Shown here piece by piece: positions 2,557 through 14,621 of a DNA stretch of 64,000 nt. Made by a program: the position numbers and the translations under genes. Each line of letters begins with the position of its first letter. Position 1 is the stretch's first letter. Source of the stretch: Minisyncoccota bacterium (lineage in GTDB: Bacteria; Patescibacteriota; Minisyncoccia; Phycocordibacterales; UBA6065); contig DASWWW010000004.1 in NCBI GenBank assembly GCA_036400935.1, positions 7,808-71,807 on the forward strand, given 5' to 3'. The notes below the pieces were generated by a model that worked only from the letters and a program-made list of their open reading frames with translations, was not told the DNA's origin and made no database searches.

Positions 2557-3210
2557 TTACCGGTTAAGGAACCATGGGAGGACGAGGAGGAGGCAAACGA
2601 TTATGTTCGCTCCAGAATAGAGGCGATCCTTGAGCGTCCACTCCTTTGCCGAAGCGAAGGCGAGAACGTTCGTGATCAGAAATCCGCTATTCGCGATGAT
2701 CGGTATGGTAGCTGGCGACTGCCAGCTCATAACGATGAACGGCACCGCCGCGATGACCGCAGCCACGACAGAGAGCACGAGCGCCCACATCGGGCCTTTG
2801 GTCATCCACAGCACTACGCACAGAAAGACGAGGATGGCGATCAGGGTATCGAAACCCGTCCAGCCATAACGTCCCTTTGCGAGGAGAACCGCGGTTGTCG
2901 CCGTGGCTCCGGTGGCGAAGATCGCCGGCACCACGGGACTTACCTTCTGCTTGTACATGGTGATGGAGGTGATCCAAGCCAGTGCCGACCAGAGGGCAAA
3001 GGTGGTGAGCGAAAGCCCCTCACCCGTACCGCGGGCTGTCATGATCACCAAATGAAGGTAAGCAAGACTGCCGATCAAGACGCTAAGAAATCTGAGTTTC
3101 GTTTTCAAGTTAACTGATTGGTTGAACTGAGTTTGGTTGAGAGTAGCTCCGAAAAGACAATAATTTGCAATTTCGAAGCTATCCTCAACCGTCGCCAACC
3201 TTTCAATCAC
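2557..3210 (-). CDS. polytopic membrane protein, paralog A of a tandem pair
   Basis: 217 aa with ~6 TM helices. Shares ARGTGEGLSLTTFALWSALAWITS and the ...AVPFIV...IPIIANSG block with 3325..3933. Confidence 0.6.
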   Translation of the reverse strand: MIERLATVEDSFEIANYCLFGATLNQTQFNQSVNLKTKLRFLSVLIGSLAYLHLVIMTARGTGEGLSLTTFALWSALAWITSITMYKQKVSPVVPAIFATGATATTAVLLAKGRYGWTGFDTLIAILVFLCVVLWMTKGPMWALVLSVVAAVIAAVPFIVMSWQSPATIPIIANSGFLITNVLAFASAKEWTLKDRLYSGANIIVCLLLVLPWFLNR

Positions 3211-3290
3211 TCTAATATATATTATACTCTACATATATGTAAAAGTCAATAGTTTGAGGATGGCCCGAATTGAGCTTAATTTGGCAAATA

Positions 3291-3320
3291 AAAAGACCCA
3301 GAACAATCTGGGTCAGACGC
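3291..3320 (-). terminator. rho-independent terminator (minus-strand sense)
   Basis: Minus sense reads ctgacccagattgttctgggtc followed by tttttatttg, directly downstream of the stop of 3325..3933. Confidence 0.7.
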
Positions 3321-3324
3321 GCCG

Positions 3325-3933
3325 TTACCACACGAACATGAGCAGCCACGGCAGGACGAGCGCGATGCCGAGCATGATATTCGCCACATAGAACAGCCAT
3401 GACTCAATCTTCCGATTCGGGATAGCCATCAGCCCGAGGATGTTTGCGGCAAGGCATCCGGCATTGGGAATGATCGGGCTGTGTTCCGGCCTTTGCCATG
3501 TCAGCGCGATGAAAGGCACGGCCGCTATCATGCCGGCCGCTACGGACAAGACGAGGGCCTTTGTCTTTTCATTCCCGATTAGGGCCACGATACAGAAGGT
3601 GGCAAGGGACGTCGTCAGTCCGTCCAAGCCCGAAAAGCCGTACCGCCCTTTAAAAACAAGAATGATGGACGTGGTGGTTGCTCCGGTCGCATAGATGCAC
3701 GGGACGATCAGAGCGGATCTTTCAACCTTGCCCAGCATCGAAACGGTGGTGATCCAAGCCAGGATCGACCAAAGGGCGAACGTGCTGATCAGGAGCCCCT
3801 CGCCCGTTCCGCGGATGATGGCGCATATCATGTAGGCGTAAGAGCCGGCAGCGATTATGGCGCTTAGGATTTTGAGCAGTTTTTTCAAGCAGCAGATGGA
3901 TTGGTTGTTGCGGTGGAGTTGATCTGGGCACAC
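3325..3933 (-). CDS. polytopic membrane protein, paralog B of a tandem pair
   Basis: 202 aa. IRGTGEGLLISTFALWSILAWITTVSM aligns with paralog A at roughly 40-45% identity by eye. Confidence 0.6.
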   Translation of the reverse strand: MCPDQLHRNNQSICCLKKLLKILSAIIAAGSYAYMICAIIRGTGEGLLISTFALWSILAWITTVSMLGKVERSALIVPCIYATGATTTSIILVFKGRYGFSGLDGLTTSLATFCIVALIGNEKTKALVLSVAAGMIAAVPFIALTWQRPEHSPIIPNAGCLAANILGLMAIPNRKIESWLFYVANIMLGIALVLPWLLMFVW

Positions 3934-3983
3934 TATGCCACACGGCTATCTTTTAAGCCAATCGGATGATAGGGTGATAAAAA

Positions 3984-4625
3984 ATGAGTACCGAACCTAC
4001 CCTGCCCACCCTGTTCATTGATTTCGACAACTGCAAGTTCAGCACAAAACTAGCTGAAATGGCCTATATCAACTGGAGATACGGCGTGAATTCCGTACCC
4101 GCAGACTATGCCGACAGCTTTTGGATCGACGAGATCCTGGCGAAGTACCTGCCGCCCGAGAAAATCCCTTCCCGAGAAGAGATCTATCGCGACCTTACCC
4201 TAAACTACCTCACCTCCATCGAACACCACGCAAGCATAGAGCCCATGGAGGGCATTTGCGAAGTCCTGCCTCTTCTGGCAAAGCGCTACTCGCTGTGGAC
4301 GGTGACCGCCCGCGTAAAGACGAGCCAAACGGTCGTCATGCACATGAACGAGCTTCATGTGCCCGGATGCATCTCTGGCGTCCATCACGTCTGGGATTTT
4401 GTTGAGGGTAAATTCAAGAAGATCGCATCCAAGCGAGACTTCATTGCGTCGTTTGCTGGTAAAAAAGTAGGATTCATCGACGACTCCCCTACCGAGGTCC
4501 TTGAAGTCGACGGCGTTGTTCCGGCTTTCCTGTTCGACCCTCACCACCAGCACGATGGCAATACTCGCATACAACGCCGGGTACGGAACTGGCACGAGAT
4601 CGGCGAGATATTCCTTGCAGCTTGA
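3984..4625 (+). CDS. HAD-superfamily hydrolase, putative nucleotidase
   Basis: N-terminal LFIDFDNCKF (DxD motif I) and the late GFIDDSP (motif IV-like), resembling 5'(3')-deoxyribonucleotidase-type HAD proteins. Confidence 0.55.
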   Translation: MSTEPTLPTLFIDFDNCKFSTKLAEMAYINWRYGVNSVPADYADSFWIDEILAKYLPPEKIPSREEIYRDLTLNYLTSIEHHASIEPMEGICEVLPLLAKRYSLWTVTARVKTSQTVVMHMNELHVPGCISGVHHVWDFVEGKFKKIASKRDFIASFAGKKVGFIDDSPTEVLEVDGVVPAFLFDPHHQHDGNTRIQRRVRNWHEIGEIFLAA

Positions 4626-4631
4626 GACTAT

Positions 4632-4662
4632 GCGGCGCCGTCTACGGACGGTGCTTTTTTAT
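4632..4662 (+). terminator. rho-independent terminator
   Basis: gcgccgtc-tacg-gacggtgc hairpin (one mismatch) followed by tttttt. Confidence 0.65.
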
Positions 4663-4684
4663 ATTTGATATATGGAAGCTTTTG

Positions 4685-4825
4685 ATGTATAAACGAAACC
4701 GTATGATCACCCGCATTCACCGTGCGATTTACCGCACTTGGGGCAAGCCAGTTCGCCTTCGTCGGAAGAGCCGCGGTCAGCGTCGAAAGTTTTTCGGCGG
4801 CAGCGGTCGCCGTTCTACTTGGTAA
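4685..4825 (+). CDS. putative very basic Arg-rich micro-protein (47 aa)
   Basis: MYKRNRMITRIHRAIYRTWGKPVRLRRKSRGQRRKFFGGSGRRSTW. It sits between terminators at 4632-4662 and 4838-4870 with GGAAG 7 nt upstream. It could also be a small RNA locus. Confidence 0.3.
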   Translation: MYKRNRMITRIHRAIYRTWGKPVRLRRKSRGQRRKFFGGSGRRSTW

Positions 4826-4837
4826 AAGGTAGCGGCA

Positions 4838-4870
4838 GTCCGTATCAGACAAGATACGGGCTTTTTTATT
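4838..4870 (+). terminator. rho-independent terminator
   Basis: ccgtatc-agacaa-gatacgg hairpin followed by cttttttatttg. Confidence 0.7.
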
Positions 4871-4910
4871 TGAGCGCATCGATAAAAAAGCCGCCCTGAA
4901 GAGGTGGCGG

Positions 4911-5348
4911 CTAGCCCTGGGGCAAGGCGAGAAATTCGAGGAATTCCTTGCTATCGAGCGCGGCGTTCGGAACCGAGACGCTCAGGGCATACTGAGCGAT
5001 CCGCCATTCGCCGCCCGGGCACTTCACCAAAGTTCCCGATCCGCGCATGGGGCCGTAATCCTCATGGTTGAGCGTCTCGTGAAAAAAGGCGACGCCGGGG
5101 TGATCTCCGACCTTTTTGATCTTGAGATCGATGGAACTCATACGCCATCCATTCGACTTTGCGAGAGTATCGGCGAGAGCGCCAATCGACCAATACTCGG
5201 TGTCGTCCGTGCCGACGAAAATCCCATCAGAAGTGAATGATTCCAAGAGGAGCGGTACATCCTTGCTCGCGGCCGCCTGCAGGTGGCCGCGAAGCGGACG
5301 AAGGATGCCATCATGCTCGGATAAGTCAAAACCGGCAATATCGTGCAT
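4911..5348 (-). CDS. SnoaL/NTF2-like (DUF4440-type) protein
   Basis: 145 aa, small alpha+beta cone-type composition, high GC. Function unknown. Confidence 0.45.
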   Translation of the reverse strand: MHDIAGFDLSEHDGILRPLRGHLQAAASKDVPLLLESFTSDGIFVGTDDTEYWSIGALADTLAKSNGWRMSSIDLKIKKVGDHPGVAFFHETLNHEDYGPMRGSGTLVKCPGGEWRIAQYALSVSVPNAALDSKEFLEFLALPQG

Positions 5349-5579
5349 AAGAACTAGAAGTTTGAGGATTTCTCCGTGGCGATATGCCGGTGGAGACCTA
5401 AGCTCAAGCTACTCCAACGCGAGGGAAAGTCAATTAGGCGCGGGTATCAACCTATCCGTACTTTCCTGCTGGAAAGTCGGACGGTCGCCCGTCAGCCTCG
5501 TTGCCCTTAGTGAAATAGGGGCTGACAAGCACTCCCCGTTCGATGAATTATCGTACGCCTGTTTCTCTTATCAGACATG

Positions 5580-6143
5580 TCACTTAGCCTTAATCACCAT
5601 TTCCATCTCTGGGATTGTTGCTCCGCTTTTCATTCTCCATTTTTCGTCAGACCATCTCTTGCCAGTGTCCACGAAACCAAGCTTCTTATAGAAATCGAGA
5701 GCTTTCTGATTGTATGTTGCCACCTGTACGATTATGTCTTTATCGGGTACAGCAAACTTTTTTACCTCTTCCCACAGCTTTGTGCCAATTCCTCTGCCGT
5801 GAAAATCGGGCAAAACATAGATGGTCCTTAACTGGTTATTGTCCTCATTTCTAATCATGGTTGCCACGCCAACAACCAAATCACCTGACTTCGCCACAAC
5901 CCTCCTTTGATTTTCTGGAGTATTCGCAATTCGCTCCTGCTGGCTTTTAATCTTTTCCTCGGTGAATGCGTCTTTGTATGTTTCCTCAACATCCTCAGCC
6001 GTAATGCCTATTCCTTCATTTGGATACGTTGCAAGCCATGCTTTGTACAAAACATTGGTAATACCCTCAGCGTCTTGAGGTACCGCATCCCTTACTTCAA
6101 TTTTCGGTTCTTTTTCGGCTAGGCTTTCCATGGATAAAGCCAT
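5580..6143 (-). CDS. GNAT family N-acetyltransferase (island cargo, low GC)
   Basis: VATMIRNEDNNQLRTIYVLPDFHGRGIGTKLW carries the acetyl-CoA binding R/Q-x-x-G-x-G motif, and ALDFYKKLGF is the C-terminal GNAT motif. The true start may be the second ATG at 6129 (MESLAEK), because an extended -10 overlaps the first ATG. Confidence 0.8.
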   Translation of the reverse strand: MALSMESLAEKEPKIEVRDAVPQDAEGITNVLYKAWLATYPNEGIGITAEDVEETYKDAFTEEKIKSQQERIANTPENQRRVVAKSGDLVVGVATMIRNEDNNQLRTIYVLPDFHGRGIGTKLWEEVKKFAVPDKDIIVQVATYNQKALDFYKKLGFVDTGKRWSDEKWRMKSGATIPEMEMVIKAK

Positions 6144-6160
6144 TTTACCATTTTCGCTGG
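6129..6160 (-). promoter_or_regulatory. extended -10 promoter (TGGTAAAAT) abutting the GNAT start, giving a leaderless or very short leader
   Basis: Minus sense reads cgAAAATGGTAAAATGgctttatccATG. The same 14-mer GAAAATGGTAAAAT recurs upstream of the giant gene. Confidence 0.4.
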
Positions 6161-6398
6161 CGGGACACCAAAATCTCCTTGTTCTTCAAGGTAAATGCTG
6201 ATAGTGATAGCGATAAATCGCTGAATGTGAACCAATTGTACTTAGAATGGAACACCTTGGAAAGTACGGTTTTGAAGTGGAACTCCGTATTTAGACAGTT
6301 TGGTCTTTCAGAAATGGTTGGAGCAAATGCTTAGGATTTAAGGTGCTTTTTAAAACCTTCCTGCTAAAGTCTTTACCTTATCAGTAATAGAACTATAC

Positions 6399-9300
6399 CT
6401 AGCTAGAGATGATTAAAGAGGCTGAGGGGTCGAGTTTTTCGTTTGCACGGGCAATCGCATCAATCTTCTCCTGAGTGTGAGCACCCACAACAATGGTCTT
6501 ATTTTCATTGATTGCCTTTACTGATGCAGAGATTAAAGCACGACCCAGCAAAACCCTGTTCTTATCAGTTGGGTATGTAGACATAATCTCTGTATAAATT
6601 TTTTCTACAACACTTACAGGAACGGAGTCGTCTATGAGAAGCTTAAGGATGAAATAAAACACCAATTTAAGTGCATTATCTGGATTTACCCCATACTCTG
6701 CTGAAAGGGTTAAAGGAAGGTGGAGCTTCTTCAAGTTTTCTACTTGTACTACAGTAATTGCTCCATCTCCGAAAACAGCCTTCTCCAAATCTTGCGTAAC
6801 AAATTGCAAAAACCTGAAACGGTAAGAAGCGAGATATGAAAAATAGTCTAAATATTCCTGAAAGCTTATACGACCCTGTTCATAAAGCACTCGCATTAAA
6901 ACGAAAGATGAGAAATATTGAGGCTTCGGTTTCTTTGTCTCAAGCTCATTCATATGCAAATACAGGAAATCTTCAGTCAGAACAGGGATACCTTCCCTTT
7001 GAGCAAGAATTGTTGCATCAGTCACGCTTGCTGGAATTTCTCGCTCCGAAAACACATCTTCCTTGCTTGCAGAAGAGATAACCCCAATGTTTGCTGTGTT
7101 TAACTCAAGCAATGCAATGGTCTCAGAAATTCTTTTTCCAGCTAAATCTCGTGCTTCTGGATTTAATTCCGAGTAACCAATTTTTCCTTTGGAATAAAAC
7201 ATCTGACCCGCTTGTCCAGGGGTATAGCTTAGTTTGTCCTTAATTTCTAAAAGCAAACTAATGACAGACTGAGGTACTTTAATGTTTGGAAGATGAGGAT
7301 GTAATTTTCTTAAAAGACCTGTTTCAGCAAGAACCCACGCTGAAGTACCGTCCAAATAAAACGGCTCTTTATTGGCGATAATCCTTGTGACAACATCCTT
7401 TTGAGACTTAAACTCCGCCATTGTTCCATCGCTCATCCTTATAAAGCCTCTCTGCTCGTTTTGTATTCTTCCAATCGCATTTGTAAAGCCTCCTTCACTT
7501 ACAACAAGAAGTGCGAACGGTAAGTTCTGGTCACAATAGTTGTTGAAGAACTCCTGACCTCGCTCCTGCTGTGCTTTCATTAGAGCCTCGACATTTTTCA
7601 AATCAATTCCACCATCCTCAGTCTGGGGTACTTCGATGGAAACTGCCGCATCCCACATTCCTTCGAGTGATAGTTTTTGGAAATGATGGTAAGTCTGCCA
7701 CATAATATATTTCTCTATGGGCAGTATGTTCTCTATAGTTTTCTCTTTTTTATCAGAAGCATACGCATTAGCAATTGTTATTTTCTCACCGACTTTCTTT
7801 CCGATGTAATCCTTCTGTTTTTGCGATGGAATAGGCTGTGCATCTAGTGACTCTCCATCACCAACAAAATACCAGCCATCTTCCTCTTTGAACTTCACAA
7901 ATCTTTCTTTCTCAATTTGACCATCTGTCACCAGTTTTATATCAAGGATATTTCCAATGGTATTGAAAACCATAAAAAGCCCAGCATATTCCTGTGGAGA
8001 CGGTCTTCGTGCGAGAGTTGCGCCACGCACAACTGCCTCAAGTGCAGTTTTTGCATCGTTATGCCTCAAATACACTTCTGAAACAAGGAGAGCATTGCTT
8101 TCAAAATCAGAGAGGTAATTTTTGTATGTCTCTACAAGCTCTTTTGCTTTCTTATTATCTTCATCAGTGTTTCTCCTTAGGAGTGCACTAACGGTTTGGC
8201 ACAATAGGATAGCCTTGTTGTTCTCGTCCAATAGAGTTATGTACTCCTTCTTTCCAAGTATCTCTTCTCCAATTTTTATGGTTTCAGGTAAGCGACCAAG
8301 CTTAAAGTTAGCGGTAAAAAGCTCAAGCTTAATCCGAACTATTCTGTCGGCTTCCTTTTCATAGGTGAGTATCTTTTCACCAAAAATTAGGACAAAGTCC
8401 CAAGCTTCTTTTTTCTTTGCTACACCAAGAAATTTTTGGCTATCAACATACCCAATCTTCGACAAATCCATTTTCTTGAGGACATCGAAAGCGCCATCAG
8501 CATTACCTGCTTCATCTTCTAAAAGTAAATAAAGTCTATCTTTGTGTATTTCCCCAGTGTCAGGAAGAGCCTCAATTATTTTCTTTCGCAAATCTGGCTG
8601 GTTAATTGCGATGCAGGTCATAACTGCGAACTGGTGGTCATCTTTTACTTTAGCAACGAAGCCGTCATAGTCCTTCTCTTCCAAATCATCGATTAGTGCA
8701 ACAAAATTATCCAACTTTTTGCTTGCATAAAACTCCTTACCCTTGGTTTCAAGAGTGCCTTGGTCGAGGAATTGGAGAAACATTCTCTTTGCAAATCCGT
8801 CTGACAGAGGTCTTTCTGCTTTATCTAAGTAAGTAAGCAGTTTTTCAAATCCTGCTTTTGGTAGACCTGCAAACGCAAGAAGGTCAGTCAATATACCATC
8901 AATGACATTATCAAAATGGCAAGAAAGGATTAGTTCAAATGTGTCTTTAACTATCGAGGCAAAATCGTCCAAGCGCTCACTCTGAACAAGAAGCATCGCC
9001 TGTTTGTAATTCAAGTAGACCTGATTGCGAACACCAATGTTACCTGAAGCTTTGAACTTATCGTTTGTGGCTTTTATTTCCTTAAGTATTTCTTCAGTTT
9101 TACTCTTTCTTTTGACCTCATCGGTCTCAGATATGAGATTGTTGATATCCATCGCAATTTTCGCATCATAGTTGGATATTTTTTCAGGATTAAAATACAG
9201 TGCTCTTTCAATAAAAGCTGTTGCGTTTACATCGTCCTCTGATTGCTTCAGGATATTTCCATAAAGTCGATAATAATCAGACTTAATCTTTGCGTCAGCA

Positions 9301-10226
9301 GGAAAAGCATCGGTATCTATTTCGCTTATCGAAACTTTTTCCTTGAGGAAACTCTTTCTTACTAGAATTTCAAGTAAATAAAGCCAGTGAGAAGCGTCGA
9401 TTGCTTTTGCTTCGTCTAGTAATCTCTGATTTTCAGAATAATCACCAGCTATTGCACAAATTTCTGCAAGATAAAGCGGTGCTCGAACATCTTTTGGGTA
9501 TCTTTTATACAAATCCTCATATTTCTTTTTTGCCTCAGGTACTTTCTCAAGACGCTGAAGTGTACGAGCTTCAATTAGCTCAAAATCAAGCAACAACGCT
9601 TCGTCTCCCTGTGAAGAAACAATCTCACGCATAGTATCTAGGGTTTGAGAAACGAAGTTTGCGTGACCTCTGTCTAATTCAGCCTCTAATCCCTTAAGGT
9701 ATTCTCTCGATACTTCAAGTGCTTTTCTCTGGTCAACATCAAATCCTAGAGACACAAGCTGGTCACTATTTAGACCTAAGAGAATTTCCTCAAGCTTTCT
9801 AGGTAAAAGAATACCGAAAGTGATGTCAGGATTTTCGCTTGCTAACTGTGCTCGTGCAGACTCAAGTACGATATCTAGCCCGTTGTTCTTATCGTTAAAG
9901 ACAAAATGGTATTCTTTTATATTTGAAATTTCACTCCAACCACTATTTTTTAGCTTGTTAAAATCATCCACCATCTTTTTGGCGGCTTCCGCACTTTTAT
10001 CAAAAGGGTTCTCTGGTGCATAAATCTGATAGTAAATGCCTTTGCTGGGTATATAGCCATCGTTACCACCATCACCTTTATTTCCGTATGGTCTTACCCT
10101 TTGAAACTCAGGGACAGCTTTTTCCATCACATCAGAAAATAAGCTCTGAAATTCAGAGCCATTCTTCTCGTGCACCTTTTTCCAAAACTGAAGTGACAGA
10201 TACCGCCTGTCCATTTGGCTACTCAT
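6399..10226 (-). CDS. giant 1275-aa protein: N-terminal Mrr-like restriction-endonuclease motif, central TPR-like helical repeats, C-terminal PIN-like region; candidate defense/toxin
   Basis: N-terminus FQSLFSDVMEKAVPEFQRVRPYGNKGDGGNDGYIPSKGIYYQIYAP resembles Mrr_cat (GDGGIDG...QxK, here QIY). The middle is all-helical TPR-like (YEDLYKRYPKDVRAPLYLAEICAIAGDYSENQRLLDEAKAID...). The C-terminus has PIN-like PFYLDGTSAWVLAETG ... IPVLTEDFLYLH. There is no Walker A. GC is low, the sequence being rich in AAA/GAA codons. Confidence 0.8.
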   Translation of the reverse strand: MSSQMDRRYLSLQFWKKVHEKNGSEFQSLFSDVMEKAVPEFQRVRPYGNKGDGGNDGYIPSKGIYYQIYAPENPFDKSAEAAKKMVDDFNKLKNSGWSEISNIKEYHFVFNDKNNGLDIVLESARAQLASENPDITFGILLPRKLEEILLGLNSDQLVSLGFDVDQRKALEVSREYLKGLEAELDRGHANFVSQTLDTMREIVSSQGDEALLLDFELIEARTLQRLEKVPEAKKKYEDLYKRYPKDVRAPLYLAEICAIAGDYSENQRLLDEAKAIDASHWLYLLEILVRKSFLKEKVSISEIDTDAFPADAKIKSDYYRLYGNILKQSEDDVNATAFIERALYFNPEKISNYDAKIAMDINNLISETDEVKRKSKTEEILKEIKATNDKFKASGNIGVRNQVYLNYKQAMLLVQSERLDDFASIVKDTFELILSCHFDNVIDGILTDLLAFAGLPKAGFEKLLTYLDKAERPLSDGFAKRMFLQFLDQGTLETKGKEFYASKKLDNFVALIDDLEEKDYDGFVAKVKDDHQFAVMTCIAINQPDLRKKIIEALPDTGEIHKDRLYLLLEDEAGNADGAFDVLKKMDLSKIGYVDSQKFLGVAKKKEAWDFVLIFGEKILTYEKEADRIVRIKLELFTANFKLGRLPETIKIGEEILGKKEYITLLDENNKAILLCQTVSALLRRNTDEDNKKAKELVETYKNYLSDFESNALLVSEVYLRHNDAKTALEAVVRGATLARRPSPQEYAGLFMVFNTIGNILDIKLVTDGQIEKERFVKFKEEDGWYFVGDGESLDAQPIPSQKQKDYIGKKVGEKITIANAYASDKKEKTIENILPIEKYIMWQTYHHFQKLSLEGMWDAAVSIEVPQTEDGGIDLKNVEALMKAQQERGQEFFNNYCDQNLPFALLVVSEGGFTNAIGRIQNEQRGFIRMSDGTMAEFKSQKDVVTRIIANKEPFYLDGTSAWVLAETGLLRKLHPHLPNIKVPQSVISLLLEIKDKLSYTPGQAGQMFYSKGKIGYSELNPEARDLAGKRISETIALLELNTANIGVISSASKEDVFSEREIPASVTDATILAQREGIPVLTEDFLYLHMNELETKKPKPQYFSSFVLMRVLYEQGRISFQEYLDYFSYLASYRFRFLQFVTQDLEKAVFGDGAITVVQVENLKKLHLPLTLSAEYGVNPDNALKLVFYFILKLLIDDSVPVSVVEKIYTEIMSTYPTDKNRVLLGRALISASVKAINENKTIVVGAHTQEKIDAIARANEKLDPSASLIISS

Positions 10227-10230
10227 AGGG

Positions 10231-10246
10231 CAATTTTACCATTTTC
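10231..10246 (-). promoter_or_regulatory. extended -10 promoter (TGGTAAAAT) 6 nt upstream of the giant gene's ATG, giving a leaderless mRNA
   Basis: Minus sense reads ctGAAAATGGTAAAATtgccctATGagt. A start site ~7 nt after the -10 would be the A of ATG. Confidence 0.4.
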
Positions 10247-10314
10247 AGACCACTTTTGATATAATGTGTCTACAAGCACCTCTTCTGTGTAGGCAACACA
10301 GAAACCTCTTCAAA

Positions 10315-10722
10315 ATGCCTAAAACTGCCCTCAGGAAGCCTTACAAGGCTACTCCTGACACAATCAAGATAATTCTCGATGCAATCGCTGAGGGACTTAC
10401 TCAGCGTGATGCCTCAGTCCTTGCTGGAATAAGCGAGGACACCCTTTCACTTTGGAAGCGTCAGAATTCAGAGTTTTCAGAACAAATTAGACAAAAAGAG
10501 ATTGAGTGCAAAAGGAAACATATCAGGAATATTGAAAAGGCTTCAGAGAAAAGCTGGCAAGCTTCAGCGTGGTGGCTAGAACGAAAATACAAGGACGAAT
10601 TCGCCCTCAAAACTACTGGAAATGAAATAAGTGATGAATTGAGAGAGTCTATGCAAAGGGGCAAAGAAATGTTTGATGAAATTTTTGCAAGGAAGCTCGC
10701 AGGAGCGAAGAAAAAGGCTTAA
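10315..10722 (+). CDS. HTH DNA-binding protein, phage terminase small-subunit-like
   Basis: Start at MPKTALRK (10315). ILDAIAEGLTQRDASVLAGISEDTLSLWKRQNSEFSEQIRQ ... ASAWWLERKYKDEF matches the TerS/HTH_23-type family common on mobile elements. TATAAT at 10262-10267. It is divergent from the giant gene. Confidence 0.6.
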   Translation: MPKTALRKPYKATPDTIKIILDAIAEGLTQRDASVLAGISEDTLSLWKRQNSEFSEQIRQKEIECKRKHIRNIEKASEKSWQASAWWLERKYKDEFALKTTGNEISDELRESMQRGKEMFDEIFARKLAGAKKKA

Positions 10723-10751
10723 TCAGAAGTCGTTTTTGTAGTATAATTTGC

Positions 10752-10871
10752 CTGTTCAACTATAACGGAAGTGACCAGTCAAACAGGTCGCTCTCTTTCT
10801 CCAATCGTAGGCAGAAAGGGGCAGTCCGAGTTCTATGATTGGAGTCCTTCGGGGTTCCGTTATAGTTGAAC
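10752..10871. repeat. 120-bp element bounded by 18-bp perfect inverted repeats (tgttcaactataacggaa / ttccgttatagttgaaca) with nested inner inverted repeats
   Basis: Left arm 10752-10769, right arm 10854-10871. An inner inverted repeat gcagaaaggggcag / ctgtccctttctgc is present. A third direct half-copy tgttcaactat lies at 10938-10948, touching the ATG of the peptide ORF. Confidence 0.7.
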
Positions 10872-10947
10872 ACCTCGGCTGTCCCTTTCTGCATCAAATT
10901 AATACGCTTTAGGGGTAATCCAGCCCAAGGTATAGAAGTGTTCAACT

Positions 10948-11148
10948 ATGCCTGAAACAAAAGATGCGCTTAAATTTCTTGCGCTTTTCGGATTACTTTA
11001 TGTAATCACAAAACATACGCCAATAAATGGTTGGCTTTTGTCATTATTCAATGACTCAATAACAGTGTTAGTGATAATTATTTTTGGTTCACTAGTGCTG
11101 ACATTTGGCTTTGAAGTAATAAGACAGTTCTTCAAGTTTTTTAACTGA
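10948..11148 (+). CDS. small two-TM hydrophobic peptide (66 aa)
   Basis: MPETKDALKFLALFGLLYVITKH...VLVIIIFGSLVLTFGF. Its ATG overlaps the third copy of the repeat half-site. Confidence 0.35.
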   Translation: MPETKDALKFLALFGLLYVITKHTPINGWLLSLFNDSITVLVIIIFGSLVLTFGFEVIRQFFKFFN

Positions 11149-11292
11149 CTTTTCAAGTCAAAATGACCCGTGATATAATTCACCTACAATCGAATAAATC
11201 ACTATTGTTAGCCACACCTAGTTTAAGGTCTCAGCTGTACACTTTTGGCGAAAGAGAAAGCCAATTGACTCGGCAAGATTACACGAATTGGG

Positions 11293-11355
11293 AACGCGAA
11301 ACGGTGGACTCTAAAAGCACAGGAATGTGCTGTCCATTAGTTTCGCGTTTTCTTT
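11293..11355 (+). terminator. nested hairpin plus T-run (terminator or leader structure) upstream of the recombinase operon
   Basis: Outer stem aacgcgaaac / gtttcgcgtt, inner stem agcaca-ggaa-tgtgct, followed by ttcttttggg. Confidence 0.5.
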
Positions 11356-11391
11356 TGGGTAGCCCTCCTCTGCATCGATTGGAGACCATCG

Positions 11392-11574
11392 ATGATTTCT
11401 CTAGAGGACTACAAAAAGAAGCTCGGAGACAAAGCAAAGCTCAAGTCCGATGCCGAAATACTCAAGATAATGAAACTGCAAGAGAAACTTGCGGATGCGT
11501 TTTTCGATATGTGGGTCGAAAAAGTAAATAATAAGAAACTTCCGACTAAGAAAAAATATGAGCGTGAAATTTAA
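11392..11574 (+). CDS. small Lys-rich helical protein (60 aa), possible recombinase accessory or directionality factor
   Basis: MISLEDYKKKLGDKAKLKSDAEILKIMKLQEKLADAFFDMWVEKV. Overlaps the recombinase start by 17 nt. No homology recognised. Confidence 0.3.
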   Translation: MISLEDYKKKLGDKAKLKSDAEILKIMKLQEKLADAFFDMWVEKVNNKKLPTKKKYEREI

Positions 11575-13270
11575 AAACTGTGTAATAGATTGCCGTATCA
11601 GCTCCACCAAGCAAGCTTCGGGTGGAGGTCTTGATGACCAGCAGGCTGTCTGTACAAATCACGCTAGAAATTATGAGTGGAATGTCATTAAGATTTTCAG
11701 CAAGGTCTATTCAGGTCGAAGTGAAGAAAGGGCTGACTTTGAAGAAATTCTTGAATTTATAAAGGAAAAACAAGGCTCAGACACTCCTATCCATTTTTAT
11801 CTTGTTAAGAGCATTGACCGAATAACTCGTGACGGAGCTGTCACTTTTGAAGAAATGAAAAGTCGCCTAGAGTTTTTGGGCGTTCAACTGGTTGATGCAT
11901 ATGGAATGATACAGCCCGCAAAGAACACCCTTGAGCATCTTGGTTTTGAATACAAATGGAGCAAAAAATCGCCAACTGCTACTGCACAGCTTGTAGAGGC
12001 TCAGAGAGCAAAGGATGAAGTTACAGATATCCTTACTCGAATGGTTGGTGCGGAAATTAGGCTTGTTCAGGAGGGTTACAAAGTTCGTCCACCACACGAC
12101 GGATTTGTAAACGAAGTTATTTATGTAAACGGTCAGAAAAAGACAATCGAGTCACCAGACCCCAAGCGAGCAGATTTCTTTAGACAGATGTTCGAGCTTA
12201 GAGCGTCAGGAAGCTTTAGTGATGCTGAGGTTGTCGAAAAAATAAATGCTCTTGGTTATCTCAGTAAGCCTAGAAGTAGATGGGTGTATAGCAAGGACGG
12301 CAAGAGGAGGAAAATTGGTGAGGTTGCGGGTAAGCCCCTTACTGTTAAACAGCTCCAAAGATTTATCTGTCGAACTATTTACGCAGGTATCAATATTGAA
12401 AAGTGGACACACGGCAAACCTATAAAGCAACAATATGATGGCTTGGTTTCGATTGAGACTTTCAACCTAGCAAACAAGGGCAAGATTTATATTCAAGAGA
12501 ACGAAGACGGTTCTTATCAGATTTTGCATAACCAGAAAGACCCACGGGCAATAATGAAGAGGAATAAATTTAATCCTCTTTTCCAATTCGATAAATTGGT
12601 TCTGTGTCCTAAAGGTTGCTGTAAACCCGCTTTGTCTAGCCAAAGTACTGGAAAGTTGGGTAATAAATATCCTGCCTATCACTGTAATAGAAATCACTAC
12701 TGGAGAGTTTCGAAGTCAGAATTTGAGAAAGAAGTAATGAAGTTTTTGAATAGTGTTCATTTCGATGAGGAATTTCTTGAGGGGTTTGAACTTATATTGC
12801 TAGATAAATATCGAGAGCGAGAAGCTGAAGTGCTTAAGGTTTCTTCCAAAGTAAGTGAAAACATCGCTGACCTAAAGGCTCAACAGGCAAAAGCCATTTC
12901 AGATTTCAGGGGTACAAAAAGCTCTATCATCCGACACAAGCTTGAAGAAGAAATTGAAGACCTTGAGAAGCGAATTAAGTCAGCAAGAGTTGAGAGACAG
13001 AAAGTCGAGCTTCAGGAGACCGATATTAAGTCGTTCATCAATTATGTGAAATTTCTAATGGAACACCCAGTAGAAATGCTTGCAGATAATAGCAATCCTT
13101 ACCGTCAGAAGGCTCTTTGGGGACTATTCTTTGAGGAAACTCCGACCTATGCCGAGATAGTTAATGGAACACCAAAACTGTCGCCTGTTGTAAGGCTTTC
13201 TTCTAAACTAGAGGGTGATAAAACCCAAATTGTGACCCTACGGGGAATCGAACCCCGATTTAAAGCTTGA
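11558..13270 (+). CDS. large serine recombinase (integrase)
   Basis: N-terminal resolvase catalytic motif VIDCRISSTKQ (Arg-x-Ser-Ser), a recombinase domain, a zinc-ribbon-like CPKGCCKP...YHC, and a C-terminal coiled-coil. 570 aa. Its last 37 nt overlap tRNA-Glu. Confidence 0.85.
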   Translation: MSVKFKNCVIDCRISSTKQASGGGLDDQQAVCTNHARNYEWNVIKIFSKVYSGRSEERADFEEILEFIKEKQGSDTPIHFYLVKSIDRITRDGAVTFEEMKSRLEFLGVQLVDAYGMIQPAKNTLEHLGFEYKWSKKSPTATAQLVEAQRAKDEVTDILTRMVGAEIRLVQEGYKVRPPHDGFVNEVIYVNGQKKTIESPDPKRADFFRQMFELRASGSFSDAEVVEKINALGYLSKPRSRWVYSKDGKRRKIGEVAGKPLTVKQLQRFICRTIYAGINIEKWTHGKPIKQQYDGLVSIETFNLANKGKIYIQENEDGSYQILHNQKDPRAIMKRNKFNPLFQFDKLVLCPKGCCKPALSSQSTGKLGNKYPAYHCNRNHYWRVSKSEFEKEVMKFLNSVHFDEEFLEGFELILLDKYREREAEVLKVSSKVSENIADLKAQQAKAISDFRGTKSSIIRHKLEEEIEDLEKRIKSARVERQKVELQETDIKSFINYVKFLMEHPVEMLADNSNPYRQKALWGLFFEETPTYAEIVNGTPKLSPVVRLSSKLEGDKTQIVTLRGIEPRFKA

Positions 13271-13304
13271 GAAGCTTCCGTCCTAACCATTAGACGATAG
13301 GGCC
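13233..13304 (-). tRNA. tRNA-Glu (anticodon CUC)
   Basis: Hand-folded minus sense: acceptor GGCCCTA/TAGGGTC (one G-U pair), D-arm GTCT-AATGGTTA-GGAC, anticodon stem GAAGC/GCTTT with loop TTCTCAA, T-arm CGGGG-TTCGATT-CCCCG, discriminator A. CCA is not encoded. Confidence 0.8.
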
Positions 13305-13400
13305 TTGCGGCTGCGTGCGCTTTTGAGGCGACAAGAGATAAATTACACTAAAAAGCGACGATTGGCAATTTCAAAGCGCCCTGCGTGTTATACTTTCGCC

Positions 13401-14621
13401 ATGAGAAAGACCGTCGGTATCCTCCTTTTCGTACTGCTCCTCCCTGCCTTTATATCGAATGTCGGGATCGGATCAGGAAGCCTCGGGCTCACGCCGGAGC
13501 ATGGCGAGCCGAAGATTTTCGGCCGAATCGCCGAGTCCCGATCAAGCGGGCTCTTTTCGCACGCCATGCTTACAGGCTGGTGCGGCGGCCTCGCCAATCA
13601 GTACGTACAGGCGTTTCAGCTAAAAGCGTTCGGGGATGGAGCCTGTACGGACTATACAACGTACAATTCCCAATCTGGCCTGCAGGCCGCCATATTTTCG
13701 GTTATCATCGCCGCGCACGCTTCGGAATGGCTTCTGCGCCTCATTACCGCGGCTTTTCTTGCCCTAGCGCTTGTCCTTTTCTGCCTTTGGCTTTATGACG
13801 AGTTCGGCTCAACGGTCGCATTCGTCACGGCATTCGGCGTCCTGGCGCTTCGCGGCCTCGTACTTGTCGGCGACAATATCGCGCACGTATTCGGAATCTA
13901 TTTCCTTATCCTTGCCTGCACGTGCTTTGCCTACGAAAAGAAATCCGCGCACATAGGCTCGATCGTATGCTGCCTCATGCTCTTCAAATATCCGCTGACA
14001 GGCTTCGAATACGTTACGGCAGCGTGGATGATGGCTTTCGCCCCGCTCGCCTTTTATGCAGTGCGGGACAAGTTCGAGGCAAAGCAATTCCGGCAGCATG
14101 CCCGCAAGATCGGATCGGCAATTGCCGTCGCGACCTTTGTCGCAATAGCGATTCTCACGGTCCAAATCAGCGTCGTGTCATCGCCCAAAGAGGCCGTCAG
14201 CCACCTGACCGAACGCCTGCAGGCACGCACCCAGTTCCCGACCGAGGGAAACCGCTCCGTCTATTACGAATCCATGAAGATAAGCACTCCCGCCCTTTTA
14301 AAGCAGTATCTCAGCTTTGACGCTATCCGAGTTTCAAACATACGCATATCGTTCGGGATGCTTACGATTTTCTTTGTCCTCATTACTGCCGGCGCTTGCC
14401 TCGTCTACAGAAAAAATCGCGATCGAAAGCTCGTCTCCCTCGCCGTCATGCTCTGGGCGAGCGTTTTGGTGCCGCTCACATGGCCCCTCATGTTCAAGGG
14501 CCATGCCGCCTTCCACACCTTCATCGATCCGGTGATTTGGCACATGCCATTTACGATACTTGGTATCGCCCTTACCGCAGCGACCGTACGAGCGGCACTT
14601 AAATTGCGCGCAAACCCATGA
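13401..14621 (+). CDS. polytopic membrane protein, possibly a GT-C-like glycosyltransferase partner of the downstream GT2
   Basis: Start at MRKTVGILLFVLLL, with ~10 predicted TM helices. Its stop overlaps the start of the next gene. Confidence 0.55.
   Translation: MRKTVGILLFVLLLPAFISNVGIGSGSLGLTPEHGEPKIFGRIAESRSSGLFSHAMLTGWCGGLANQYVQAFQLKAFGDGACTDYTTYNSQSGLQAAIFSVIIAAHASEWLLRLITAAFLALALVLFCLWLYDEFGSTVAFVTAFGVLALRGLVLVGDNIAHVFGIYFLILACTCFAYEKKSAHIGSIVCCLMLFKYPLTGFEYVTAAWMMAFAPLAFYAVRDKFEAKQFRQHARKIGSAIAVATFVAIAILTVQISVVSSPKEAVSHLTERLQARTQFPTEGNRSVYYESMKISTPALLKQYLSFDAIRVSNIRISFGMLTIFFVLITAGACLVYRKNRDRKLVSLAVMLWASVLVPLTWPLMFKGHAAFHTFIDPVIWHMPFTILGIALTAATVRAALKLRANP

Follow-up and report, generated by a model that had tools for sequence, protein, structure and literature searches.

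The window analysed here (64,000 nt, positions 7,808 to 71,807 of the forward strand of contig DASWWW010000004.1, assembly GCA_036400935.1, from a Minisyncoccota bacterium) contained a gene at nt 6399–10226 on the reverse strand, with a confirmed ATG start, that encoded a 1275-aa protein in which a head of restriction endonuclease (REase) fold was followed by TPR repeats, a putative GreA/B-C domain and a nuclease domain of PIN type. The gene is real and intact, and there is good support for placing it in the TPR-GreA/B-C-PIN (TGP) family, whose members are candidate anti-phage systems made of a single gene. The best explanation, to which we assign a probability of about 0.7, is a stand-alone REase+TPR+GreAB-C+PIN conflict system that is carried as cargo by a serine-recombinase element and acts through a transcription-sensing mechanism. 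The four-part domain anatomy, the invariance of the PIN acidic residues, the lack of a conserved partner gene and a mobile, patchy distribution were observed here, as was a nuclease-fold active-site region (D52, D56, Q67, Y69 and K84) that was strictly conserved but non-canonical. An anti-phage role and the sensing of RNA polymerase would follow by analogy with the family model of Kaur et al. and with Agp/Bab, a relative possessing a different output module.

The TGP system was described by comparative genomics (Kaur, Iyer, Burroughs and Aravind 2021, eLife; PMC8195603) as mostly stand-alone genes whose N-terminal position is filled by any of 13 effector domains (REase, HNH, TIR, SIR2, PNPase and peptidases among them), and the source data of that study list 'REase+TPR+GreAB-C+PIN' repeatedly as a solitary gene of 1113–1527 aa. 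Five features defining the family were examined and all were found, one of them through predicted structure only: a PF20698-type PIN toward the C-terminus, an FKBP-like GreA/B-C domain placed after the TPR region and before the PIN (the feature seen by predicted structure), TPR repeats upstream of GreA/B-C, a constant core with an exchangeable N-terminal effector, and a mostly stand-alone gene with few conserved neighbours. An initial annotation, made from the sequence alone, had proposed that the architecture was undescribed and matched no named system; this does not hold, since REase+TPR+GreAB-C+PIN is listed by Kaur et al. and a dedicated Pfam family exists (PF20698). The gene thus adds a member to a family that had already been defined by computation and has hardly been tested, and it is no new type of system. 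Two points alone reach further than what has been published: the head's non-canonical active site, and the satellite-like character that the 7-kb element carrying the gene may have.

The open reading frame (ORF) itself and the three peptides quoted in the initial annotation were present as claimed, the latter at aa 25–71, aa 955–970 and aa 1080–1091. An identical protein, listed as hypothetical, is deposited in NCBI from a Candidatus Paceibacterota metagenome-assembled genome (MAG). A regular-expression search of the 1275 aa for Walker A and a Pfam profile search for NTPase families were both blank, in agreement with the earlier view that the protein has no Walker A/B NTPase and is not a STAND- or AVAST-type sensor. 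No match to the full protein was obtained in PHROGs, and a PDB sequence search gave chance-level matches only.

The TPR, GreA/B-C and PIN core

The PIN nuclease domain occupied aa 957–1089 (nt 6960–7358, reverse strand). PF20698, named 'PIN domain associated with the TPR-GreAB-C-PIN system', was the sole above-threshold Pfam match; its score was 38.9 bits (cut-off 27.8) in the full protein and 42.1 bits in a scan of the segment alone. Four acidic residues, D959, E1041, D1070 and D1086, were invariant in 42 aligned homologs, which were 30–71% identical to the window protein. The PIN-like tail of the initial annotation was thereby borne out. A VapBC-type toxin-antitoxin was considered and rejected, as the PIN is one part of a 1275-aa protein and a conserved small gene upstream was lacking. 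The PIN was followed by an all-helical domain (aa ~1100–1270; nt 6417–6929, reverse strand), in which the C-terminal ~170 aa resembled MIF4G/MA3/HEAT-like helical repeats; a C-terminal profile gave no match in PDB.

Between the TPR region and the PIN, aa ~772–836 (nt 7719–7913, reverse strand) formed in predicted structure a beta-rich, FKBP-like domain similar to the C-terminal part of GreA/B, with a conserved motif (F/Y)IGKK(V/I)G(D/E)KI. We take this motif to resemble the Gre signature 'LLGKKVGD'. The assignment as GreA/B-C is structural only and the domain is accordingly treated here as putative. The N-terminal coiled coil of Gre proteins was absent from the window protein.

The TPR or presumed helical-repeat region (aa ~215–745; nt 7992–9584, reverse strand) had TPR motifs detectable only at aa ~219–279 and 320–353. 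At aa 219–279 the window protein matched TPR_19 and also Pfam TPR_16 (E = 6.5e-5, below the gathering score), and NCBIfam TPR proteins matched aa 227–353, whereas in orthologs the aligned stretches (aa ~210–285 and 315–353) passed the gathering thresholds of TPR_19/16/14/8. Motifs detectable in sequence spanned aa ~215–355, and aa 355–745 contained no sequence-detectable domain. The initial annotation had read about 700 aa as TPR-like repeats; this was right for aa ~215–355 but not for aa 772–836, the beta-rich GreA/B-C domain, a proposed RNA-polymerase-docking element that its domain list had missed.

A 1280-aa protein of Fluoribacter dumoffii plasmid pLD-TEX-KL aligned with aa 227–1255 only (24% identity, E = 3e-64), its N-terminus being unrelated. 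Because this protein shares the core alone, and the N-terminal module of the window protein recurs elsewhere (see below), the protein can be divided into a constant core (aa ~227–1275) and an exchangeable N-terminal module, and such modularity of core and variable head is the pattern that defines the TGP family. On the plasmid (locus at nt 2768–8213) the gene adjoins a small serine recombinase and a GNAT/DUF1778 pair; a GNAT gene also lies just downstream of the TGP gene in the window, but it looks RimI-like and is without a DUF1778 partner.

The N-terminal nuclease-fold head

The N-terminal effector module (aa 1–200; nt 9627–10226, reverse strand) comprised a core of PD-(D/E)xK (REase) fold at aa ~20–140 and then a helical extension. 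A structure model of aa 1–200, built on 30 homologs, had a pLDDT of 87 and a pTM of 0.83, and its topology of helix, three strands, helix and strand corresponded to the alpha-beta-beta-beta-alpha-beta core of the fold. In this model D56 opened strand 2 and Q67-x-Y69 lay on strand 3, while the loop with D52 was modelled at low confidence. The head carried the signature GDGGNDG ... YYQ(I/V)Y(A/S)P ... K84 ... W97 ... FVFNDK, in which G48, G51, D52, N55, D56, G57, G63, Y65, Y69, P71, K84, W97, N111 and D112 were invariant in 42 of 42 aligned homologs and Q67 was kept in 41.

The position of the canonical lysine of the D...(D/E/Q)xK motif was occupied by Tyr69 in the window protein, as pointed out initially, and by Tyr in all 42 homologs. 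The invariant K84, on the following helix, appears in the model as the obvious candidate for a relocated lysine, and K84 together with N111-D112-K113 could substitute for the missing one. The initial annotation had likened the head to the Mrr catalytic domain; the REase fold is supported by the structure model, but membership of Mrr_cat is not. A Pfam scan of aa 1–194 alone at E up to 10, in which the HMMER filters discard most matches above E ~0.1, returned one spurious match and no nuclease family, Mrr_cat (PF04471) included. A PDB search with a profile of the domain gave chance-level matches only. In Mrr/FokI-type PD-(D/E)xK nucleases a lysine completes the (D/E/Q)xK motif where the window head has tyrosine, and the head shared only 7–11% sequence identity with its structural matches.

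The sole library match of the head was to PADLOC LmuA (PDLC03852; aa 20–113, E = 7e-8). When a profile of the head was run against 1.84 billion representative proteins, 1577 proteins were found at E up to 0.001, including, besides the ~1270-aa proteins, a large group of ~305–325 aa at E = 1e-40 to 1e-48. Nine of ten proteins sampled were of this short type, and seven of the nine carried Pfam CTD10 ('ABC-three component' systems) together with PADLOC PDC-M68A/LmuA; the tenth was a 644-aa nSTAND3 fusion. On a Cupriavidus plasmid the head occurred in a protein annotated as 'ABC-three component system protein' (ABC-3C), followed by 'middle component 6' and then a 642-aa protein, and in a P2-like Klebsiella phage it was part of a 347-aa protein whose gene lies between those for virion morphogenesis and baseplate V. 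Of the short proteins, 60 retained the whole signature with Y69 and K84. Position 27, the acidic position of helix alpha-1, was mostly Glu in the short proteins but Gln in the TGP-type copies, whereas D52, N55, D56, Q67, K84, N111 and D112 were invariant or nearly so across both classes.

These data bear on the alternative that the head has no catalytic activity and works instead as a sensor that binds nucleic acid or as an oligomerization module, leaving the PIN RNase as the sole effector, acting by RNA cleavage alone. Tyr69 in every homolog, Gln27 in the TGP-type copies, the low confidence of the D52 loop and the absence of a Pfam nuclease match would all agree with a dead head. However, the same module stands in the effector position of ABC-3C/Lamassu-like systems and of the nSTAND3 fusion, its (near-)invariant residues fit a catalytic centre with a relocated lysine, and Kaur et al. 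(PMC8195603) class the N-terminal position as that of an effector; we therefore consider a dead head unlikely. A further proposal, tentative and at low odds, is stated jointly with the satellite-like reading of the element given below: within the REase fold, the head may represent a clade whose catalytic lysine has moved (D...QxY together with a helix Lys). ABC-3C effectors would share this clade, which may differ in chemistry or target from classical Mrr-type enzymes.

Lamassu as such was rejected for the window gene, since only the head (the N-terminal ~95 aa) matched LmuA, with neither CTD10 nor an LmuB partner; the neighbouring genes were a recombinase and small ORFs. A match of that recombinase to LmuB (E = 8e-4, aa 418–527) lay outside the catalytic domain and was treated as spurious.

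The element at tRNA-Glu and the distribution of homologs

The TGP gene was cargo of a ~7-kb serine-recombinase element (nt ~6227–13260) located at the 3′ end of a tRNA-Glu(ctc) gene in a Candidatus Paceibacterota genome. The GC content was 0.37–0.41 across the TGP gene and nt ~5500–13300, versus 0.53–0.58 in both flanks. A large serine recombinase (integrase) of 570 aa was encoded at nt 11558–13270 on the forward strand (Pfam Resolvase, E = 2e-11; phrog_95 integrase, E = 2e-29), and the tRNA-Glu(ctc) gene (nt 13232–13304, reverse strand; ARAGORN and Rfam) formed the integration site and the right end of the island. The initial annotation, which had placed the gene as low-GC cargo near a large serine recombinase and tRNA-Glu, agreed with these data. 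The last 39 nt of the recombinase ORF (nt 13232–13270) overlapped the tRNA gene on the opposite strand, the C-terminal ...RGIEPRFKA being read from the T-arm, and homology between independent copies of the element extended ~25–30 nt into the 3′ end of tRNA-Glu. Because of this overlap and of the homology entering the tRNA, the element seems to supply the tRNA 3′ end.

A related element was present in a Saccharibacteria MAG (locus L004), where a module of recombinase, 121-aa ORF, 122-aa ORF and TGP gene stands beside PycTM, methylase and GIY-YIG genes. DNA homology to it covered window nt 6227–10304 and 10800–13255/13261, and the window recombinase was 75% identical to the TGP-linked recombinase of L004 and L014. 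The left boundary was set by homology alone, which reached nt 6227 against L004 and nt 6414 against L013, a locus in another Paceibacterota MAG (JALOQM010000002.1, nt 9761–13828); no duplicated tRNA fragment or convincing direct repeat that could mark an att site was found at the left end. In L013 the TGP protein was 90% identical and the tRNA-Glu(ctc) flank was syntenic with the window, but the TGP gene and its promoter motif lay 165 bp from the tRNA and the ~3-kb recombinase/terminase-small-subunit (TerS) module was absent, the two loci forming a natural 'with and without' pair. The module was either lost in L013 or inserted later in the window; either way the TGP gene is accessory cargo at a tRNA hotspot.

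The other genes of the element were small. A helix-turn-helix (HTH) or TerS-like protein was encoded at nt 10264–10722 on the forward strand, divergent from the TGP gene (phrog_4102, E = 7e-22; weak Pfam matches to HTH_28 and Sf6_terminase); its start is perhaps Met18 at nt 10315, and its L004 counterpart was distant (25% identity, E = 2e-6). A TerS-like gene near an integrase in a 7-kb element recalls phage satellites, but the protein may be no more than an HTH protein or an excision factor. A 122-aa ORF (nt 11163–11531, forward strand) of odd composition shared 74% identity and 84% similarity at the protein level with its 121-aa counterpart in L004, where the DNA was only ~76% identical, and on this conservation is probably a real gene belonging to the element. 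The four genes of the element (serine recombinase, TerS-like HTH protein, 122-aa ORF and TGP gene) could make up a minimal phage-satellite-like island of the candidate phyla radiation (CPR)/Patescibacteria, in which the TerS-like protein would allow hitch-hiking on a helper phage and the TGP gene would be anti-phage cargo; this forms one proposal with that of a distinct nuclease-head clade and, like it, is regarded as doubtful.

A promoter-like extended -10 sequence, TGgTAAAAT at nt 10241–10233, was read within nt 10227–10246 on the reverse strand, 6 nt before the ATG of the TGP gene, and no Shine-Dalgarno-like sequence preceded the start codon. The block AAAATGGTAAAATTGCC was identical in loci L001, L004 and L005, where the gene region was ~81–83% identical to that of the window, and nearly so in L013. 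Leaderless transcription from this block, as suggested in the initial annotation, is consistent with these observations and a reasonable reading of the sequence, although the conserved block is not proof. The same promoter-like block, GAAAATGGTAAAAT, was observed at nt 6134–6155 for the GNAT gene and at nt 10225–10246 for the TGP gene, directly at both start codons, which would leave little or no leader in either. The low-GC GNAT gene (nt 5580–6143) lay outside the homology common to the elements. Between the last host-like gene and the GNAT gene, nt 5349–5579 (~230 nt) was without a convincing ORF and matched nothing in Rfam at E up to 1; the segment 'GGAAAGTCGGACGG' there looks by eye like the RNase P P4 region, a likeness that nothing supports. 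Two tRNAs were the only Rfam matches in the window, and nt 5250–6420 gave none at E up to 1.

Full-length homologs numbered more than 120, with 31–90% identity, and a scan of one genome per species gave at least 161 relatives. These came from Paceibacterota, Saccharibacteria, Gracilibacteria, Peregrinibacteria, Acidobacteriota, Chloroflexota, Planctomycetota, Nitrospirota, Bacillota and Bacteroidota, as well as from a Bathyarchaeia archaeon and the cultured Sulfidibacter corallicola. Their distribution was extremely patchy and identity among them did not follow taxonomy. The full-length archaeal homolog (Candidatus Bathyarchaeia archaeon DATKWK010000039.1, nt 5406–9191) was 46% identical, as close as most bacterial ones, which points to a recent inter-domain transfer unless the contig was wrongly binned.

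Prophage, plasmid, island, restriction-modification and toxin-antitoxin contexts were represented among the homologs. In Gracilibacteria (OY760177.1) a full-length homolog was part of a prophage, where it lay directly after an HpaII-type methylase and endonuclease in the interval from the portal/minor-capsid genes to the major-capsid gene; a similar prophage in Peregrinibacteria had genes in common with it. One homolog adjoined a Phd/PIN toxin-antitoxin pair and another a DDE transposase, and many were chromosomal with no linked mobility gene. No family of flanking ORFs within 4 kb was common to more than 3 of 33 loci, and there is thus no conserved partner gene.

The possibility that the gene does not act against phages but is a selfish addiction or toxin module, which kills cells that have lost the integrative element and so stabilizes it, would suit the two nuclease-type domains, the tight linkage to a serine recombinase in at least two lineages and the toxicity of Bab/Agp upon overexpression (bioRxiv 10.1101/2024.11.07.622273). 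Nevertheless, no antitoxin-like small gene is conserved alongside, L013 keeps the gene at the same tRNA-Glu site without the recombinase module, and the many chromosomal homologs have no linked mobility gene, which together make this explanation quite improbable. A housekeeping factor for transcription or RNA surveillance, in which a Gre-like secondary-channel factor and an RNase would rescue stalled polymerase, could account for a Gre-like domain and an RNase-type PIN in one protein but is highly improbable for a gene whose island is low in GC, whose occurrence is scattered over phyla and domains at identities independent of taxonomy and extends to prophages and plasmids, and whose product has a variable N-terminal effector and no Gre N-terminal coiled coil.

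Proposed function and comparison with known systems

Under the preferred reading of a stand-alone conflict system, the constant core would watch transcription. The GreA/B-C domain would dock on the rim helices of the RNA polymerase beta′ subunit at the secondary channel, with the TPR array as scaffold or sensor, and the PIN would cleave RNA emerging from, or associated with, a phage-hijacked polymerase. On activation, perhaps via oligomerization, the N-terminal REase-fold effector would degrade DNA and infection would be aborted. This follows the prediction of Kaur et al. (PMC8195603) that GreA/B-C engages the beta′ coiled coil at the secondary channel, that the PIN cuts the extruded transcript and that, on failure, the N-terminal effector is released. 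The invariance of D959, E1041, D1070, D1086, D52, D56, Y69 and K84 was counted as selection on active sites. Experimental data come from the TGP protein Agp, which acts jointly with the adjacent Bab to abort infection of E. coli ECOR25 by T5 (Ibarlosa et al., bioRxiv 10.1101/2024.11.07.622273); the GreA/B-C mutants S628L and L634P lost protection, as did the PIN mutant D762N, but the latter protein was destabilized.

Several points weigh against this reading. RNA-polymerase binding by TGP proteins is a prediction, and the putative GreA/B-C domain of the window protein was not recovered by other routes: a Pfam scan of aa ~740–950 alone gave no GreA/GreB family, neither PDB profile searches nor Foldseek showed a Gre protein, and hhalign against E. 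coli GreA and GreB found the right register but weakly (P = 0.02). The head lacks the canonical lysine (Y69), which makes its activity uncertain. In the literature searched no experimental work on a REase-headed TGP member was found, and no Bab-independent activity of Agp was seen, Agp needing its partner (10.1101/2024.11.07.622273). PADLOC 2.0 has no model for the TGP system, and the wider window around the island contained housekeeping-like genes, not a multi-system defence island.

TGP proteins form a large and widespread class of candidate immune proteins. It has been proposed that they detect the take-over of RNA polymerase by a phage and use no NTPase switch in doing so. The window gene has their most common fused-nuclease architecture, here in a CPR bacterium, and at 3.8 kb is a large investment for a small CPR genome. 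It is carried by a compact serine-recombinase element that recurs in Saccharibacteria, and another Paceibacterota genome has a TGP gene at this tRNA-Glu site. The alignments also provide a clean list of invariant residues for three putative functional centres, the REase head, GreA/B-C and PIN, usable for mutagenesis.

Among known systems, the published REase+TPR+GreAB-C+PIN class (Kaur et al.; PF20698) has the same domain order, the dedicated PIN family, solitary genes and sporadic distribution, and the TGP system shows, as does the window protein, a variable N-terminal effector on a constant, rapidly evolving core. The examples of Kaur et al., in the size range given above, are mostly from proteobacteria, whereas the window protein belongs to a clade of ~1270 aa mainly from uncultured lineages (CPR, Acidobacteriota, Chloroflexota and archaea), and its REase class is likened to theirs by architecture, not by subfamily. 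The ABC-3C/Lamassu-like effectors (PADLOC LmuA PDLC03852 and PDC-M68A; Pfam CTD10, PF20275) have a homologous N-terminal region of ~160 aa with the same GDxxNDG...YYQvY.P...K...NDK signature, but they are ~310 aa long with CTD10 at the end and are partnered with an ABC/SMC-like ATPase and a middle component, neither of which accompanies the window gene. Agp of ECOR25, likened by description and not by alignment, has the TPR-GreA/B-C-PIN core in common with the window protein and is the sole family member with phage data (T5 and some Drexlerviridae). At its N-terminus, however, Agp has an amyloid motif, and it signals to Bab, a pore-forming protein separate from it, whereas the window protein has a fused REase-fold head and no partner gene.

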